This document shows positions 2,763-16,017 of a DNA stretch of 64,000 bases, piece by piece. The notes below the pieces were generated by a model. That model saw nothing but the letters and a program-made list of their open reading frames with translations, searched no databases and was not told the DNA's origin. Source of the stretch: an uncultured bacterium (GTDB taxonomy: Bacteria; Patescibacteriota; Minisyncoccia; UBA6257; GWB1-50-10); NCBI GenBank assembly GCA_963722655.1, contig CAVRNT010000002.1, positions 71,461-135,460 of the forward strand, in the 5' to 3' direction. Both the position numbers and the translations under genes were made by a program. Numbering within the stretch: position 1 is the first letter of the stretch; each line of letters begins with the position of its first letter.

Positions 2763-4594
2763 TTAGCTTGAATTGTTCTGGCATTTTTGCCGTTTCATCA
2801 AGTTGCCATCGACAAATTCGACGACCTTCTTCATTACTGAGTGAAATGACCTGGCGCCACCGCGTTCCAGTCTGCTTAGGGTTGCCGGATCGATTCCGAT
2901 CAACCGGGCAAGCCCTTTTTGACTGAGACCAATGGACAGGCGATAGCGGAGGAGTTTGCCCGCTAAATCATGGTCTTCCGACGCGAAGGGATCGTATCCC
3001 AGAAATGATATGACCGCTGGGATTTCCCTTGGCAGGGGTTTTGTCCTGTTCTTTTCCCAGTTCCAGATCGTCGCTTCATCGACTTTGATGGTGTGTGCGA
3101 CCTGTTTCTGCGTCATCTTCAGGTCCAGCCGCCGTCTCCTGATGTGGTCGCCGACTGTCGCGACTTGCCGGGGGTACGCCTTGGAAACGGGCTTTTTAGC
3201 GATTAATTGGACATCAAGAATGGCAACGCAGGGATGAGGATGCGTTGCCATTGAGGGGGAATTCAAGGAGTGGGGGACGTAGGACAGGTTTATTTGGATT
3301 TCATCGCCGGACACGATGATCTTCTCCGTTATGGTTTCGACGATCCTGCGTTTCTCGCTGGGTTCCAGGCTGGACCATCGCGAGTACAGGTCTTGAGCCT
3401 CGTTAACGACCTCGTCGCTCGATAGGTACTGTATCTTGAGGAAATCGATCTCTCCCTGCAATTCGGGCAGTTGTCTCTCGATTTGCTTGAAACGCTCGTC
3501 CAGCGGCTTGTAATGCCTCCCAACGGCCTCCTGGGGCACCGTCTTGTCCAAGTAGAGTTTCATGATCCGGTCCATCTCCTCCCGGATGGTCTTGGATTCG
3601 GCATCGATGGTTTCGAGGAGGCGCTCCTTTTCCCGGATGGTCTCATCCGCATGGCTCAGGTATTTCGCGATTTCTTCTGGGGAGAAGAAGAAAGCCTTGA
3701 GCTGCTCCTGGAAAACAGACTCAAGGTCGGCGGTGGCGATCTTGTTATGGCACTTGCGGCAGTAGTAGTTGGCGGATTTCGAGGGGACCGGCATCCCCGT
3801 GCCGCACGCGGAACAGTAAACGAGGCCGGAGAAAAGGTGAAGCGACTTCCTGGCGGGGGGTCTCCTTTGGGCGTGTTGTTCCTCAAGCATCTGGTTGCAA
3901 TGGTCCCACGTCTCCTCGGAGACAATCGGCTCGATTTCGGATAGCACCCATTCGTCTTCCGGTTTCAGAATCCACTTCTTTCCCTCACCAAGGGACTTCG
4001 TGTAATTGGCTCGTCTCAAACCCTTGGCACTCGGATCGCGGAGAAGCCGGTCAACCGTCGTGTCGCTGAACTTGGAACCGTTCCTTGTCCTGTGACCCCG
4101 CTCGTTGAGCATCCGTGCCACTGTCTTCTTGCGGCGGTGTTCGAGGAAAAGATCGTACATGAGCCTCCTGACGGGAGCCTCCTTCGGCTCGGGGACCAGT
4201 TTTCTGTCCAGCCAACGGTAGCCGAACGGCGCCGCTCCGCAGCGGTTTCCCAGCTTCGCCGTATCGGGACGGAGGCGGCGACCTGTCGGCTATCTCCTCG
4301 CGTTCACTGGGCCATGGCGGCGATCATGGTGTAAAAGAGACGGCCTGACGAACTCGAAAATGTCGGATCAATTCCTGGAGCGAAACGAGGTCGGCGTATA
4401 TTGCCGGAATATCTCGGCGAACTCCAAGAGTTCGCGGGTATTCGGCGAGCCGTGCAGCTTGGAGAATATAAGTGCGGTTATCCGTCCGCACTTGATGTCG
4501 TCGAGCATGCGCTGTGTTTCTGGATAGCCCATGACGGTCTTTCCGCTCATCGCCTCAAGGTGGTAAATCTCTTTCACCTCCCAGCCTTCGACTC
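2763..4594 (-). pseudogene. large serine recombinase that is frameshifted and N-terminally truncated: resolvase domain fragments, recombinase domain, zinc ribbon and coiled-coil
   Basis: ORF 2763..4160 carries the recombinase domain and the zinc-beta-ribbon 'LVYCSACGTG...YYCRKCHNK'. ORF 4368..4577 is a resolvase-domain piece 'GWEVKEIYHLEAMSGKTVMGYPETQRMLDDIKCGRITALIFSKLHGSPNTRELLEF'. The next resolvase segment, 'GIDPTFSSSSGRLFYTMIAAMAQ', is in a different frame at 4320-4400, so there are at least two frameshifts. The catalytic-Ser N-terminus is lost into the homopolymer block at 4595. Confidence 0.8.
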
Positions 4595-9763
<5,169 letters not shown>

Positions 9764-9894
9764 AATTCCGGGTTATCCAGTACATAAGGAGTGTATTGTT
9801 GACGTGAGCGGCACGTTTACCATTCTTACGGACCGTTCCTCATCGCCTTACGATGAATCCAGAATCATTAAAAAAGAAAAAGGAGATGAGGATC

Positions 9895-10383
9895 ATGTCA
9901 TTCAACAAACATGAGAAGGTTGAAGTGGGATTCAACCAGGCGACGAGGCTCCGGCTCATCAAGACCGAACCCTTCATCGGCACCAACGATTACGGGAGGT
10001 ACTACCGCTATGACGTTCTCGACCTCGGCGACGACAAGGAGAAATCGTTCTTCGCCCCTGATTACCTCCATGAGGAGATGAAGGAGAAGGGGCTGGCCGC
10101 CGGGAAGGAATTCGCGGTGAAGAAGGTGCCCTTCAAGAATAACGGGAAACCTTCTTCGCGGATTGAGCTTTCCGTGAACGGCGCGGCTTCGCCACGAAGA
10201 GAAAACCATCAAGCATCGCCCAAGCTGAATTTCCGCGACATCATGCTGGAGTGCCTGAAGGACGCGGTCGAGATCGTGAATTCGGTGAAGGAGGTCCCGT
10301 TCCAGACGAATGATATCCGTTCCATCGCCGCGACGCTCTTCATCGCCAAGGTGAAGCAGTGGAATTACCGGGAAGGCGACTGA
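9895..10383 (+). CDS. hypothetical protein upstream of the SymE-like gene
   Basis: The ORF has an 'aaaaggag' SD 9 nt upstream of ATG 9895. Its stop overlaps the next start in a 'TGATCATG' junction. No recognisable domain. Confidence 0.5.
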   Translation: MSFNKHEKVEVGFNQATRLRLIKTEPFIGTNDYGRYYRYDVLDLGDDKEKSFFAPDYLHEEMKEKGLAAGKEFAVKKVPFKNNGKPSSRIELSVNGAASPRRENHQASPKLNFRDIMLECLKDAVEIVNSVKEVPFQTNDIRSIAATLFIAKVKQWNYREGD

Positions 10384-10385
10384 TC

Positions 10386-10679
10386 ATGGACAAGACGGAT
10401 AGCGCAGGGGCAGACACGGGTAAGCTGGCGGGTGACGGTGTGCGCAGACTCCGGAAAGTCCAGTATGCGTACTATGACCACGGCTCTGACGCGCCGCATC
10501 CAGTCATTCGGATAGCTGGGAAGTACCTTGAAAAATTCGGATTCAGAATCGGAGATACGATCGAGGTGGAGATCGGAAACGGTGAAATATCCATAAGCAA
10601 GCTGTCGGACTCCGTGGGGGATTACCTCAACGAAGCTGGTCCGGATTCCTCTGATGAATCCCAAAACAAAAGGGAGTAG
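10386..10679 (+). CDS. SymE-like (SymE_toxin / AbrB-fold) type I toxin family protein
   Basis: 'KVQYAYYDHGSDAPHPVIRIAGKYLEKFGFRIGDTIEVEIGNGEISIS' aligns with E. coli SymE '[48 protein letters not shown]'. Confidence 0.6.
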   Translation: MDKTDSAGADTGKLAGDGVRRLRKVQYAYYDHGSDAPHPVIRIAGKYLEKFGFRIGDTIEVEIGNGEISISKLSDSVGDYLNEAGPDSSDESQNKRE

Positions 10680-10759: not shown

Positions 10760-11770
10760 ATGGATAAGGAAACTCAACTGAAATTCAGAATATCAAAGAT
10801 CGCCAATCAATTTTTCTTCATTACCAATTTGGCTGAATGGGATTTCAGTTGTAGGACGGAATATAGTGCCTTGTGGATTGAACACACTGGCCCTCTTAAT
10901 GCGGAGGAAAAAGAAACGCTCCTAGCGGTGAAGAAGATCATACAGGCACACAGTCCCTATCATTATGAGGATGGGCGATCAAATTCACTTTGGAATTGTT
11001 TCTACACGCTTTCAAGCAGTTCTGCTTGGAAACGTGCGAGACTCGCCCTCACCGATTCGGATTACAACCAATTGAAGCGGGCTTTCAATCTGTTCGATTG
11101 GCGCTTCAAGAGAATTTGGCGGCGTTCAAATCTGCAAAAGGACGTTTCGAGACTGAAGCAGCTATCTCAGGCAAGGAGTTGCCGTGTTGCCATTCGAGAA
11201 ATGTTCCACTTCTTGGGGCTGACGGACATTCCATCGCAGCTGGAGGTTGTCGCATTGATGTCCCCGCTTAGTGGCGATTCGGTGACTGCTGCGGGTGGTG
11301 CAAACGTGGATGATCGACATATTACTCTCGAAATCCCATCACTGAGGCCCAATACATGGGAATTGGAACACTCTCTAGGGGTTCTAATCCACGAGGTAGG
11401 CCATATCGCGATGAGAATAGGTGCGAAAGCGGGATCTCTTGTCAAGAATATGAGCGGGAACATTAGGTTCGGCCAGAATCAAAGGCCCTTTCGCGAAATT
11501 TTGGAGGAGACGATCATAGATTGCCTTGCCCCTTCTGGCTTTCTCGCTCAACATTACTTTCGGTTCAAGCCAACAACATTGTTCACAGAAGACATGCCAC
11601 GCATCTTCGAACACTTTCTCAGGTTCAAAAGCGGCCGTCGATATTCGCCGTACAAAGTTGGCCAATATTTTGTCTGGCAACTCTATCCAATCACCGCATC
11701 ATACATGGGGAACAAAAAGACCATCGACAAAGCCTTTGTCGAATGCGTTGTCAATTTACTGAAGAGGTAA
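10760..11770 (+). CDS. hypothetical protein with an HExxH zinc-metallopeptidase-like motif
   Basis: 336 aa. 'VLIHEVGHIAM' is followed ~30 aa later by 'EILEE'. AT-rich. Its 3' end overlaps the convergent rSAM gene by 20 nt. Confidence 0.5.
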   Translation: MDKETQLKFRISKIANQFFFITNLAEWDFSCRTEYSALWIEHTGPLNAEEKETLLAVKKIIQAHSPYHYEDGRSNSLWNCFYTLSSSSAWKRARLALTDSDYNQLKRAFNLFDWRFKRIWRRSNLQKDVSRLKQLSQARSCRVAIREMFHFLGLTDIPSQLEVVALMSPLSGDSVTAAGGANVDDRHITLEIPSLRPNTWELEHSLGVLIHEVGHIAMRIGAKAGSLVKNMSGNIRFGQNQRPFREILEETIIDCLAPSGFLAQHYFRFKPTTLFTEDMPRIFEHFLRFKSGRRYSPYKVGQYFVWQLYPITASYMGNKKTIDKAFVECVVNLLKR

Positions 11771-12881
11771 CATCAAGGGGCGTGGACTTTAGCTTACCGC
11801 TTGAGATAATATCTCTGATTCTCGTCTGGATATAACGGAAGGTTTCCTGCCGAGCCTCGCAATATGGATAGTCGCCGTCATATCTTCCGGAATGCCAATA
11901 CGACGCCTCTCGGCAGCCGCCACGGCAGAGGGATAGGTACGCGCACTTGAGACATTTTGCGTTTACGTGCACTGAACGCATCTTCCTTAGTTTATGTGTT
12001 TTCTTTGACGATAGGATTTTGATAAGCGGTTCGGAGAAAACATTTCCTAGGACAAATTCTTCGGATGAAAATGAACCGCATGGCATGACTGTCCCGTCTG
12101 GTGCCACCGTAACCATTCTCTTAAGACAAGATGAGCTGAAAGAACACAGCTGTGGCGGAATGCCGAGTAATGATTGCACCATACTGTATATCGGGTCCAG
12201 TGTCAGCATGGTCTCGTTGCTTGGGTCAACCCACAATTCGAAGGTAGTCCGATAAAGTTCGAAGAGTTCCTCATTGGTGGGGGCTTCCACTCGTCTGCCA
12301 TTTGGGGTGCTCATCAATGGTAGTAACGAGTAAGAGGTTGCTCCCGATGAAGAGAAGAAACGATATATCTCGGAACCCCGCAGAACATTTCTTTTGGTTA
12401 CAACGCATAGGAAGCTGAGGGGGAACTTCTTCTCCCGCATGAGTGTGATGGTATGAGAAATCTCCGCTTCAATACCTGGATCTCCCATTGTTCTTTGGAA
12501 CCTTTGCACATCAGGTGGGGCGTCATAGCTGACACCTACGGAAAACTTATTCTTGTTAAAGAATTCTAGCCATTCACCATTGATCAGCGTTCCATTGGTC
12601 TGCAAAGTGTTCTTGAAGACTGTTGCGTTTTTCCTGGTGATCTCAGTTTCGGTTTCAACGGCTGTCTCATAGAATTCTAACCCTGCCAACATTGGTTCGC
12701 CGCCATGCCAGGTGAATTTGACTGAGTCAAAGCCTCGCGACGCATTTCGGACCACATTCTGCATTTCAGCGACGGACATTTTGCACACGCCCTTCCTTGA
12801 AGCCATGACATAACAATCATAGCCACAATGCATATTGCATTCGGAACTGGTCTGAACGATGACACTAATTGTGTTGCCCAA
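11751..12881 (-). CDS. radical SAM enzyme with a C-terminal SPASM domain (peptide/protein-modifying maturase family)
   Basis: The N-terminal Cys cluster is 'CNMHCGYDC' (CX3CX3C spacing as translated) and a 'WHGGEPMLAG' SAM-binding motif follows. The C-terminal SPASM motifs are 'C-x10-G' and 'CLKCAYLSLCRGGC' (CX2CX5CX3C), plus a final 'YPYC'. The start is a TTG. Confidence 0.8.
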   Translation of the reverse strand: MGNTISVIVQTSSECNMHCGYDCYVMASRKGVCKMSVAEMQNVVRNASRGFDSVKFTWHGGEPMLAGLEFYETAVETETEITRKNATVFKNTLQTNGTLINGEWLEFFNKNKFSVGVSYDAPPDVQRFQRTMGDPGIEAEISHTITLMREKKFPLSFLCVVTKRNVLRGSEIYRFFSSSGATSYSLLPLMSTPNGRRVEAPTNEELFELYRTTFELWVDPSNETMLTLDPIYSMVQSLLGIPPQLCSFSSSCLKRMVTVAPDGTVMPCGSFSSEEFVLGNVFSEPLIKILSSKKTHKLRKMRSVHVNAKCLKCAYLSLCRGGCREASYWHSGRYDGDYPYCEARQETFRYIQTRIRDIISSGKLKSTPLDVTSSVN

Positions 12882-13057: not shown

Positions 13058-15055
13058 ATGCTCTTTCACATACTAAAGCAAGTGAAATATGAACCTAGAG
13101 ATAGAGTCTATGTGGGGACTGATGACCCATCTGCTTACAAGTATTCAGTAGTAGATTCCCTTTCCATTTCAACAAAAGATGATGATTTTTTCTTTAAAGG
13201 AATTGGGAAGATTCTACTTAATCAGGGTCTAAATTGTGTGATTGGTCCACGAGGAGCGGGGAAATCCACAATGCTAGATGTCATTGCGTTGAGTTTGGGA
13301 AATTTAGATGTACTAAAAGAAAACAGAAATAACTACGTCGGGTATTTCTTCAAGACAGGTGACGCAGGTATCGTAAAGTCACTCGTAAGAAATTCCTCTA
13401 CCGGAGAAAATAAGGAGTTGTCGGCTGCAACGGCAAAGGCAAGTGGGTTCGTATTCGATTACTATCATCAGAAACAGATAGGTTACTTAGCCGATCCCAA
13501 TAACGAAGAAATTTTAAGTCGCTTTCTATTCGAGAAAATCTTCAAAGAAGGACGTGGGTTGGATTCAATATTCAGCGAGATGAATGAACAAAGAGATAAA
13601 TGTGTTTCGAGCCTTGCAATTAATAGAGAGAAAGTGGTCGCCTGTGAAAAGGAAATTGCCAAGGAAACAGATGTACGCGGGAAGATTGATGACAAAACCA
13701 ACAGAGCACAATTCCTTTCACAGGAGGAAATTAAACATCTATTAAATCAAAGGAATAAGGTAATTAAACTACGCGAACAAGTAAAAAGAATAAAAACGCG
13801 GGTCGATAGAATTGACGAAGAGCCACTTATTGCAGAAGGCGAATTGGTTGACTCTGCTTTTTTCTCAGACCTTAAGCTTAGTTCGGTTGACCCGGAAGGG
13901 ACACTAATCCCGGCCGAGTGGAAAAAATTAGAAAAAGATGCAAACGAGTTTGTGACATCCTTAGGCAAGACAAGGGTGAGCCTCGAATCAGAAGTTGTGG
14001 GTTTCACAAAGAAGGTTGTGGAGTTGGAACCGTTATTCAAGTTCGATCAGGAACTTGAGGGGATATGGAAACAAATCCAGGCAGAATCTAGCAAGAAGGG
14101 TGTCACTATAACAAAGATCGATCTGGAGCGGCTGGATGCGATTCAAAAGGAAGTTGCTTCATTAGAAAAACAGTTACAGACAATCGAGGCACACAAAAGA
14201 GAGAGAACGACCTTCCTTGAAGAACGAGGGAGGCTACTGAAGGAATACAACGATCACCTAGTCACGGTGAAGAGTAGTCTAGAAGGTAATTTTAGAGACC
14301 TACTGGATAAAGATGGCGCTATTCTTGAAAACACAATTAAATTGGAAGTGGAGATTAACCTATCCCTAGACTCTTATCTGTCGGTCATTGAGGAAAAAGC
14401 TCAGCACGAGGCCGGAAGTGATGTAGCAAGATTTCCTAATAGAAAGTCCCTCCTCGAGCTTTTTAAGAGTTTGACTGCAGAGAAAGTATTACGCGACTTA
14501 CGCAATAACTATTTTGAAGACTGGATTGGACCTGGCTTTGGCTCTGGTGGCTTGGACTATTTTAGGAAGATGTCGAATCGCGAGGAGGTCGCTATGTATA
14601 TTGAGGAGCAATTGCCAACCCTGACATCGCGATTGACCTGGAGGCCAGACCAATCAAAGGAATTTAAACCTCTGAGAAAATGCTCCATTGGTGAGAGAGG
14701 AACAGCGCTACTGAGCGTAATTTTGATCGCGGGCCGAGAACCACTTGTCATAGACCAACCCGAGGATGATCTCGACCATTTTTATTTATTTAAAACCCTC
14801 ACGCCAATAATCAAAGAAGTTAAGAAGAGAAGGCAATTATTATTTGCCACACACGACGCTAATATCGTTGTCAACGGTGATGCTGAGTTGATTCTGATTG
14901 TAGCCACGGATGATGGAAAATACGGTGATATTACTACCTCGTCGATAGAAGACTTGAGAAATAGGACGAGGATAATGGGCATATTGGAAGGTGGCGAGGA
15001 TGCTTTCACAAAAAGAGAGCAGAAGTACAATTTCCCTCGACAGAAATCATCTTAG
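13058..15055 (+). CDS. SMC/RecN/RecF-like ABC-type ATPase with a long coiled-coil insert (665 aa), possibly a conflict/defence-system ATPase
   Basis: Walker A 'GPRGAGKST' at aa ~65. A ~300 aa heptad-rich K/E/L region. Signature-like 'SIGERG', Walker B 'LVIDQPEDDLD' and H-loop 'FATHD' near the C-terminus. AT-rich island gene. Confidence 0.75.
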   Translation: MLFHILKQVKYEPRDRVYVGTDDPSAYKYSVVDSLSISTKDDDFFFKGIGKILLNQGLNCVIGPRGAGKSTMLDVIALSLGNLDVLKENRNNYVGYFFKTGDAGIVKSLVRNSSTGENKELSAATAKASGFVFDYYHQKQIGYLADPNNEEILSRFLFEKIFKEGRGLDSIFSEMNEQRDKCVSSLAINREKVVACEKEIAKETDVRGKIDDKTNRAQFLSQEEIKHLLNQRNKVIKLREQVKRIKTRVDRIDEEPLIAEGELVDSAFFSDLKLSSVDPEGTLIPAEWKKLEKDANEFVTSLGKTRVSLESEVVGFTKKVVELEPLFKFDQELEGIWKQIQAESSKKGVTITKIDLERLDAIQKEVASLEKQLQTIEAHKRERTTFLEERGRLLKEYNDHLVTVKSSLEGNFRDLLDKDGAILENTIKLEVEINLSLDSYLSVIEEKAQHEAGSDVARFPNRKSLLELFKSLTAEKVLRDLRNNYFEDWIGPGFGSGGLDYFRKMSNREEVAMYIEEQLPTLTSRLTWRPDQSKEFKPLRKCSIGERGTALLSVILIAGREPLVIDQPEDDLDHFYLFKTLTPIIKEVKKRRQLLFATHDANIVVNGDAELILIVATDDGKYGDITTSSIEDLRNRTRIMGILEGGEDAFTKREQKYNFPRQKSS

Positions 15056-15107
15056 TAGGACACTTGCGAATTTGATTTAAGCAGGCGAAAATTATTAAGG
15101 TGATACT

Positions 15108-15623
15108 ATGAATTTCTCTCTTAAACCGAATCCCCTAATAGCCCTTTGGGTGCCGGGCTTTCTGACGGTCACGGTGATTCTTCTCAGTGCCTATGTAGGC
15201 GGATCGCTAAGTGTGTTGAACTCAATCACGACGCTTCCATTTTACGCCATTGGCTTCATGGTGATTGTTGCCGGGTTTGCGGTGGGAGAATTTTTAGATA
15301 CGATTAGAGATGTCCTATGGGAGAGCTTTTTGGATCATCTCTGCAAAGGGAAGTTCAAGATTCAATGGGAATTCTTTTTCAACGGAGAAGAAAGACATAT
15401 AAAAAATCTTGAGGAATGGTATTACACGTACTACGAGTTAGATTTCAATTTGTTTGCGGGAGAGGTGATAGTCTACCTACTGTCTTGGTTCCCAGTAATC
15501 CACATAAGCCTCGGAGTTCAGCTTATAATGGCCTTCCCCGCAGCACTCTTTCTCATAAGTGCTCTTCTTGTAAGAGGAGAAATTAAAAAATTAATTGATG
15601 AACATTATGCCCAACAAAAGTAA
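15108..15623 (+). CDS. small polytopic membrane protein (hypothetical)
   Basis: 171 aa with 3-4 hydrophobic segments. It sits between the ATPase and the SET gene with small overlaps, an operon-like arrangement. Confidence 0.5.
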   Translation: MNFSLKPNPLIALWVPGFLTVTVILLSAYVGGSLSVLNSITTLPFYAIGFMVIVAGFAVGEFLDTIRDVLWESFLDHLCKGKFKIQWEFFFNGEERHIKNLEEWYYTYYELDFNLFAGEVIVYLLSWFPVIHISLGVQLIMAFPAALFLISALLVRGEIKKLIDEHYAQQK

Positions 15624-16017
15624 TCTTCCCCATATTGGCGTTTACACCAGAATCAAGCGTTCTGAGGTAGACGAGAACGGTGTTGGGGTATTTGCCATAC
15701 AATCAATTAAGAAAGGAACCAATATCTTCCCCGGCGACATCGCCAGGATGGTTCCTGTAGACGGCAAGCAGATTAGGAAATTACCGAAGGCAATAAAGAA
15801 ACTCTATGAGGAGTTTTGTGTCATCAAGAAAAGGAAAAACGGGAAAATATACCTATGTCCCAAAAGCTTCAATCTTCTAACGGTTGCATGGTACATAAAC
15901 GACTCTGATACACCCAATGTCCGGTGTGACAAAAACTATGACTTCTTCGCACTCAGAAATATCAGGGCCGGGGAAGAATTAACAGCAGATTATTCGACTT
16001 ACAGCGACGAGGATTAG
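15607..16017 (+). CDS. SET-domain protein (putative protein lysine methyltransferase)
   Basis: 'GVGVFAIQSIKKGTNIF' matches the SET-N GxG motif. 'WYINDSDTPNVRC' matches the NHSCxPN motif. 'ALRNIRAGEELTADYS' matches ELxxDY. Confidence 0.75.
   Translation: MPNKSNLPHIGVYTRIKRSEVDENGVGVFAIQSIKKGTNIFPGDIARMVPVDGKQIRKLPKAIKKLYEEFCVIKKRKNGKIYLCPKSFNLLTVAWYINDSDTPNVRCDKNYDFFALRNIRAGEELTADYSTYSDED

Follow-up and report, generated by a model that had tools for sequence, protein, structure and literature searches.

A putatively truncated TrlF/Ppl-family ATPase and a membrane-protein/SET gene pair as probable independent cargo of one mobile element

Effectors of the Pycsar, CBASS, and Thoeris systems combine an N-terminal effector with a C-terminal sensor and draw on interchangeable transmembrane (TM) and NADase modules. 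Escherichia coli Ppl is a single-gene 3'-5' single-stranded DNA exonuclease in which the PHP domain is the nuclease and effector (PMC12904381), and SET genes are present in free-living bacteria (PMC3980110). Here, we compare with these systems a locus of three adjacent genes in a 64,000-nucleotide stretch of DNA (the window; contig CAVRNT010000002.1, positions 71,461 to 135,460) from an uncultured bacterium of the Patescibacteriota. All three lie on the + strand: an ATPase open reading frame (ORF) of 665 residues (13058-15055), the gene of a 171-residue protein with four predicted TM helices that we call family A (15108-15623), and a SET-domain gene that starts either at an ATG (15607-16017, 136 residues) or at a TTG (15595-16017, 140 residues), the ATG at 15607 being the choice of public gene calls. 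A preliminary description of the window had located these ORFs correctly and proposed that they form an undescribed three-gene module of an SMC-like ATPase and a SET methyltransferase. Our analysis points instead, with a probability of roughly 70%, to a composite of two independent cargo units, a truncated ATPase and a membrane-protein/SET cassette.

The ATPase gene and the cassette as separate units

No SET or membrane-partner gene was found in 19 other loci of the ATPase family, and the window's ATPase family was found in none of 88 other SET loci, which leaves the proposed pairing of ATPase and SET genes without a second case in these neighborhoods. The ATPase family normally occurs alone or beside unrelated neighbors, an outcome that the preliminary description had itself named as refuting, and the claim of an undescribed three-gene module is left unsupported. 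Its relatives accompany Dcm, a HATPase protein, and Vsr; stand between an N6_N4 methyltransferase and a DEAD/ResIII helicase; lie with SIR2_2, with a methyltransferase and a gene without known family near AbiE, or with a type I restriction-modification (R-M) system on a conjugative element; or form a stand-alone gene of 893 residues on plasmids of E. coli (relatives occur in 1124 plasmid records). The membrane-protein and SET genes overlap by 17 nt (ATG start) or 29 nt (TTG start), as had been described, but the overlap also reported between the ATPase and membrane-protein genes is in fact a 52-bp spacer (15056-15107, + strand) carrying an AAGGTGA Shine-Dalgarno site for the membrane-protein gene. 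The closest SET protein (83% identity) and the closest membrane protein (81%) sit together in another locus, L003, with the same 17-nt overlap, directly after QatABCD and not far from a serine recombinase. At the DNA level, the window and L003 are homologous over exactly 15108-16016 (80.7%), with nothing beyond the cassette borders, and the spacer has no homology to the spacer upstream of the L003 cassette. A further pair, in locus L109 (44%/58% identical), lies between an AriA/OLD-like ATPase-TOPRIM protein and two unassigned genes, and the genes downstream of the L003 and L109 cassettes are unrelated to each other. No conserved third gene was found beside the membrane-protein/SET pair, whose neighbors are heterogeneous. 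The cassette is a separate, widespread, conserved, and translationally overlapped pair, and the ATPase probably stands beside it by chance juxtaposition. As first written, the finding would add a spurious "SMC-ATPase + SET" entry to the candidate defence modules.

The NCBIfam model TrlF_fam_ATP (NF045780) matches ATPase residues 6-658 with an E-value of 3.3e-83 over profile positions 259-944 of 944, at a score of 280.9 bits, under the curated NCBIfam cut-off of 350. Ppl models match at 4e-32 in NCBIfam (111.2 bits vs a cut-off of 1000) and at 3.8e-30 in PADLOC. These matches assign the 665-residue protein to the TrlF/Ppl family of single-gene PHP-exonuclease plus ABC-ATPase proteins, in keeping with the earlier placement in a defence-associated ABC/SMC-like family but not with the LmuB, JetC, or ABC three-component type named there. 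An affinity of that type was rejected: PADLOC LmuB models match at E-values of 0.003-0.027 over the P-loop only, JetC is not among the 25 PADLOC families with matches, and no LmuA/LmuC or JetA/B/D partner family was matched among the neighboring genes. The described order of motifs holds, with the Walker A motif GPRGAGKST in the N-terminal region (residues 63-71; 13244-13270, + strand; residues mostly invariant in a 21-sequence family alignment) and, in the C-terminal region of the same strand, the ABC signature-like motif CSIGERGTALL (residues 542-552; 14681-14713), the Walker B/D-loop PLVIDQPEDDLD (residues 562-573; 14741-14776), and the H-loop FATHDAN (residues 596-602; 14843-14863). The two halves are separated by a charged insert, long as stated but of ~470 rather than ~300 residues, and the coiled coil ascribed to it is represented by sub-threshold Pfam matches only (Prefoldin_3, SKA2, and a split SMC_N match of 28 bits against a cut-off of 40). 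Residues 161-440 are 53% E/K/R/Q/D/L, and the insert is taken to be helical.

Since the TrlF match begins at profile position 259, the first ~258 positions of the profile have no counterpart in the ATPase. Among the database homologs, 43 of 61 are 892-981 residues long, with 47-72% identity over 98-100% of the query; shorter ones are mostly cut by contig ends or distant (≤40% identity over ≤20% of the query). The closest homolog, P0002, aligns with the window ATPase through its residues 258-916 at 72% identity. An N-terminal WRKWDLHxHT block with a PHP-type metal site is conserved in the family alignment, and at all 10 loci of relatives where the upstream DNA suffices (7 distinct proteins), the ORF runs on for 269-304 residues ahead of the matching region and starts with (S/T)xW(R/Q)(K/R)WD(L/V)HxH(T/S), with Q for the first H in one of them. 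A tblastn search found no PHP remnant anywhere in the window. Homology to the related element L001 starts at 13064-13073, just past the ATPase ATG, before which no Shine-Dalgarno-like sequence was found, unlike the membrane-protein gene. Every family-invariant column of the 21-sequence alignment is kept; lineage-specific changes at conserved columns number 15 in the ATPase vs 4 in its closest relative (p 0.02), 3 of the 15 at the new N-terminus. We read the gene as a recent 5' truncation of a TrlF/Ppl-family gene, judging from these alignments, and count the protein as a new but defective member of this known family. As PHP is the effector of Ppl, its absence means that the family's effector has been lost, probably via a rearrangement that put a radical-SAM gene upstream of the ATPase. 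Because the PHP feature is missing and both scores lie under the curated cut-offs, we do not class the protein as a Ppl/TrlF system; we infer that it would be unable to act as a Ppl-type nuclease defence and would be a remnant or at most an ATPase-only derivative.

Two other accounts of the locus compete with the composite. In one, the ATPase, membrane protein, and SET protein form a single three-component defence system in which the SMC-like ATPase would sense foreign DNA, with the membrane protein and SET as effectors. This is very improbable: the triad is limited to one sequence population, the closest cassette (L003) comes after QatD instead, cassette homology stops exactly at its own borders, and the ATPase family otherwise consists of single-gene PHP-ATPases, of which this copy is truncated. 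The common strand, tight spacing, 52-bp gap without a predicted terminator, and uniform low GC content of 42-43% across all three genes would suit such a system, as would the position of the related L109 cassette directly behind an ABC-type ATPase, but that ATPase is of AriA/OLD type, without significant similarity to the window's. In the other account, the ATPase is no remnant but a functional, naturally PHP-less, ATPase-only sensor. An intact ORF with all motifs, a truncation exactly at the domain boundary with an ATG present, and the existence of distant PHP-less ATPases of 626-631 residues (P0049 and P0050) make this worth considering, but we regard it as unlikely given that PHP is encoded at all 10 close-relative loci where the upstream DNA suffices (7 distinct proteins), that the ATG has no Shine-Dalgarno-like sequence, that conserved columns show a mild excess of substitutions, and that the effector domain is gone with no replacement nuclease adjoining the ATPase.

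Several points nevertheless weigh against the composite of two cargo units. The ATPase ORF keeps all its motifs and family-invariant residues, and since it is intact with only a modest excess of changes, the protein could still be expressed and functional. The 52-bp spacer, in which no terminator is predicted, permits co-transcription of ATPase and cassette; a neofunctional link between the two within this one element is conceivable; and the two assemblies that show the arrangement may come from the same sample. The SET model discussed below is of moderate quality, with a predicted local distance difference test (pLDDT) score of 78 and Foldseek TM-scores of 0.38-0.52.

The membrane-protein/SET pair

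The SET protein matches Pfam SET (PF00856) at 3e-11 and 44.1 bits, above the gathering threshold of 22.4, over profile positions 1-104 of 105. It carries, on the + strand, motif I GVGVFA with the SAM-binding (S-adenosylmethionine-binding) GxG (residues 25-30; 15679-15696), the N-x-S-x-x-P-N motif as NDSDTPN (residues 98-104; 15898-15918), and the ELxxDY motif as GEELTADY (residues 122-129; 15970-15993), whose Tyr is catalytic in SET enzymes. In an alignment of 31 homologs, N98, S100, P103, and N104 are invariant or nearly so, and the SET motif residues are mostly likewise; the canonical His of "NHS" is Asp in the window protein and varies across the clade. An AlphaFold2 model (pLDDT 78) predicts the SET β-fold, and its top Foldseek matches are all SET proteins, namely vSET (3kma first), MLL1, EZH2, and SET8; profile matches in the PDB are to MLL/KMT2 SET domains. 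By motifs and model, the third ORF is a genuine SET domain with the predicted fold and the motifs of a SAM-dependent methyltransferase, as the preliminary description had recognized, and we infer that it is catalytic.

The 171-residue partner has four hydrophobic segments, which bears out its description as a polytopic membrane protein, and matched no model in Pfam, NCBIfam, PADLOC, or PHROG. At E≤1e-3, 196 clusters at 50% identity match family A. Residues G17, G60, D64, R67, W87, Y109, and R156 are invariant in the family, which further has a charged loop of ~50 residues (66-115), predicted to be cytoplasmic, with D64, R67, E72, W87, Y109, and N114 as conserved loop residues. Charge distribution predicts an N-in/C-in topology, which would place both the conserved loop and SET in the cytoplasm. 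A C-terminal SET domain is fused to 43 of the 182 retrieved family-A members, residues 1-170 forming the membrane domain and ~175-300 the SET domain; by Pfam labels, SET is the sole fusion partner detected in family A, five longer SET-less members being outside this check. Gene pairing and fusions show the membrane protein and SET to form one predicted functional unit, and the 17-nt overlap may, through translational coupling, keep the two proteins stoichiometric.

Besides those in L003 and L109, a membrane-protein/SET pair is carried by an element that has DUF932, DUF3276, Mu Gam, and a ligase as well. In L109, a DrmD-like helicase and a type III R-M system belong to the same island as the pair. 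The ATPase of this island (L109 4667-6565) is a single chain of 632 residues, of which 1-382 match AriA (5e-63) and a longer stretch matches OLD/GajA, with a TOPRIM-like EGxxD motif read in the C-terminal region; it looks, from these matches, like a fused PARIS-like or class-1 OLD protein. Membership of this AriA/OLD-like protein in the window ATPase family was considered and rejected (best BLASTP E-value 1.4). In an Acidobacteria metagenome-assembled genome (MAG), a membrane-protein/SET pair lies between the lysine-biosynthesis genes asd and dapB (L033 4000-6538), a single case that may be a coincidence.

No PADLOC (2023) or PHROG model matched the SET protein, and no SET match was found in the phage and plasmid collections. 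A phage origin of the locus was considered and rejected: the ATPase family is absent from 2.9 million viral contigs, and close relatives of the SET protein occur in two viral contigs only, the remainder being distant and vSET-like. About 70 contigs from IMG/VR, including GVMAG giant-virus bins (L113-L185), carry distant vSET-type small SET proteins, 25-41% identical, which are unrelated to the membrane-partnered SET clade.

Exchangeable partners of the SET clade and its possible role

The SET clade comprises 390 loci among GTDB species representatives from at least eight phyla, mostly of free-living soil and groundwater bacteria. We surveyed the upstream partners in the 80 best SET loci from this set. 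A family-A homolog stands directly upstream of SET in 13 of the 80, in frame with it in three or four, and two further four-TM families, B (13/80) and C (7/80), occupy the same position as separate or fused genes, so that SET is joined to a four-TM family in 33 of the 80 loci. Families B and C have no Pfam model, and no homology among A, B, and C was detected by hhalign (probabilities of 2.4%, 0.4%, and 18%, from shallow profiles).

Another 20 of the 80 loci encode SET as a fusion with a soluble, conserved N-terminal domain of ~260 residues. We identified this domain as FRG (PF08867) through the Pfam labels of P0086 (PF08867 and PF00856) and through YRGQ and QHxGxPTRLLDWT motifs. Frg is an ART-superfamily candidate antiviral effector and possible NADase (PMC9503650). 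The FRG-SET fusion loci are L012, L014, L016, L019, L024, L025, L035, L045, L049, L054, L055, L058, L063, L065, L068, L076, L078, L081, L085, L086, and L112; the fusions are ~390-450 residues long and come mostly from Acidobacteriota MAGs, and in public gene calls they are frequently cut or reduced to their SET part (as in P0086, P0141, and P0165). Open-access papers, to which our literature search was confined, gave no description of dedicated membrane partners of SET or of FRG-SET fusions.

In 62 of 76 loci, the GC content of the SET module lies >3 points under that of the flanking DNA (mean difference -7.5 points, Wilcoxon p 8e-13). Compared with flank windows of its own size, the SET segment ranks among the lowest 5% in 43 of 76 loci, and in 39 of 64 its GC content at third codon positions is lower than in any long flanking ORF. 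Order in the SET tree does not track partner type. Partner exchange and foreign composition together point to an accessory module that moves horizontally and consists of [four-TM A, B, C, or FRG] plus SET. One SET clade is now tied to the membrane through dedicated partners without a Pfam model, and to FRG in other lineages; we know of no agreed function for the SET domains of free-living bacteria. A four-TM partner might anchor SET on the cytoplasmic side of the membrane for methylation of a membrane-proximal amine, be it a protein lysine, a small molecule, or a lipid head group; alternatively, SET might control the membrane or FRG module.

Two views of what the pair is for stand at about the same probability. 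It is plausible, at less than even odds, that the pair is a physiological membrane-proximal methyltransferase and ordinary accessory cargo of its element, with a lysine in a protein of the membrane or of envelope biogenesis, or an amine-bearing lipid or small molecule, as its target. The breadth of the clade (390 loci, at least eight phyla), the housekeeping surroundings of many loci, the conserved catalytic motifs, and the prior knowledge of SET genes in free-living bacteria (PMC3980110) agree with this. The patchy distribution and foreign base composition fit it less well, as do the exchange of the membrane partner for FRG or for families without detectable relationship to it, the defence-island settings of the closest relatives, and the lack of a conserved substrate-pathway neighbor. 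We hold only tentatively that the pair and the wider [four-TM or FRG]-SET family are an abortive-infection or exclusion-type conflict module of one or two genes. Its N-terminal module would be the effector, either a membrane-perturbing four-TM bundle or an FRG/ART-type NAD-consuming domain, and SET the sensor or switch, responding for example to SAM availability or a phage-protein trigger, or restraining the effector by methylation. One SET clade is joined to three four-TM families without detectable mutual homology (33/80 loci) and to FRG (20/80), itself a candidate antiviral effector/NADase (PMC9503650), in a module order that resembles, by analogy, that of Pycsar, CBASS, and Thoeris effectors; composition is foreign in most hosts, neighbors are not conserved, and each of the four close relatives with enough surrounding sequence lies in a defence island or on a mobile element. 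That association has an n of 4, however, and no PADLOC or PHROG model matches either protein. Distant family-A members lie among yidC/nusA, asd/dapB, glycosidases, and a tRNA synthetase, and few PADLOC matches are listed outside L003 among 124 neighbors in 14 family-A loci, these being methyltransferases, two AriA-like proteins, and matches attributable to SMC proteins or sigma-54 activators. The strictly conserved catalytic motifs of SET fit an enzyme as well as a sensor, and the conserved polar cytoplasmic residues of the four-TM partners suggest specific binding over a simple pore.

A more general proposal, which we consider possible but doubtful, is that the small SET clade is a common C-terminal module of undescribed one- or two-gene conflict systems with exchangeable effectors (three four-TM families and FRG/ART), of which the window cassette would be a split member on a mobile element. 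If this were true, it would link a SET-domain protein to prokaryotic immunity for the first time, and SET might be a SAM-dependent switch guarding against phage interference with SAM or methylation.

The mobile element and comparison with known systems

The three genes belong to the low-GC cargo carried by a serine-recombinase/TrwB mobile element (42-43% GC in all three, vs 56% for window 18-64 kb), which confirms the island context first described. Leftward of them lie the genes of a large serine recombinase (2763-4594, - strand; 5' end lost in a homopolymer artefact), in a region 98% identical to positions 1-1100 of L002, which encode a Resolvase/Recombinase protein, and of a TrwB/TraG-type coupling protein (8591-9763, - strand; 3' end cut by the artefact), followed by a 176-residue protein without family match that overlaps a 106-residue SymE-toxin-like/AbrB-fold protein (9853-10679, + strand). 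The related element L001 (JGI 3300035688) matches window 3877-4595, 8591-9752, and 13073-15033 at 67-70% DNA identity, that is, over the recombinase, TrwB-type coupling protein, and ATPase, and its PHP-ATPase, full-length at 916 residues, precedes Dcm, a HATPase_c protein, and Vsr; a common backbone with different cargo indicates cargo swapping. The SymE-like gene, its ~190-residue neighbor, and the TrwB-type coupling-protein gene recur in L001 and look like backbone genes of this element family.

Window 4887-8586 consists of homopolymer runs (A x607, T x3058, and C x35; GC zero) that yield spurious 1282- and 1348-residue poly-K/poly-F ORFs and are almost certainly an assembly or scaffolding artefact. 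In their place, L002, an independent assembly of the same element, has ~4.4 kb with a dCTP deaminase gene, a 450-residue gene, an AP-endonuclease-2 gene, a 190-residue gene, and the 3' part of the TrwB-type gene. An independent 18.5-kb Logan contig of the same element stops at window ~16181, 164 bp past the SET stop, beyond which GC climbs over 2 kb; together these suggest that the right end of the element, its attachment junction, lies just past SET.

A radical-SAM/SPASM maturase gene (11751-12881, - strand) lies directly upstream of the ATPase truncation point on the opposite strand. Its product matches NCBIfam anaerobic sulfatase maturase at 1.9e-64 and DynA at 6e-60 and has a SPASM domain; identity as a viperin was rejected, with pVip reaching only 2.7e-12. 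The gene is not part of the ATPase/membrane-protein/SET neighborhood unit, and, as a SPASM-type maturase relative on the other strand, it lends no strength to the three-gene proposal for which it had been cited. A 336-residue protein without family match but with an HEVGH (HExxH zinc-protease-like) motif (10760-11770, + strand) converges on it with a 20-nt overlap, and the two may, from their motifs and arrangement, form a small peptide-modification cassette.

Among described systems, the window ATPase is closest to Ppl and TrlF: it is homologous throughout to TrlF's ATPase part, its C-terminal head matches Ppl, it has the same split ABC head with a long helical insert, and its relatives occur alone in defence islands and on mobile elements. 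It differs in having no N-terminal PHP exonuclease with the H-x-H metal site, and its identity to E. coli TrlF is only ~25%; in the literature, the name TrlF returned spectroscopy papers only. With LmuB and JetC it shares the Rad50/SMC-like layout of an N-terminal Walker A, a C-terminal signature, Walker B, and H-loop, and a long helical insert.

The SET protein resembles vSET, MLL/KMT2 cores, and other bacterial and archaeal SET proteins in its size of ~120-140 residues, in having no pre- or post-SET region, and in the GxG, NxSxxPN, and ELxxDY motifs. It differs from stand-alone SET methyltransferases in its dedicated polytopic membrane partner, or fusion to one, and has no evident histone-like substrate. 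BurB, a bacterial SET enzyme that S-methylates free methionine, is soluble and encoded in a biosynthetic cluster, and has no sequence match to the window SET at E≤1e-3. Finally, compared with Pycsar, CBASS, and Thoeris, the SET family has a methyltransferase in place of a nucleotide-binding sensor, no linked signal-producing enzyme, and no database match for defence; it would resemble these systems, including Thoeris ThsA, by analogy of architecture, in the exchangeable N-terminal module joined to one conserved C-terminal domain, the one- or two-gene units, the patchy distribution, and the low GC content.

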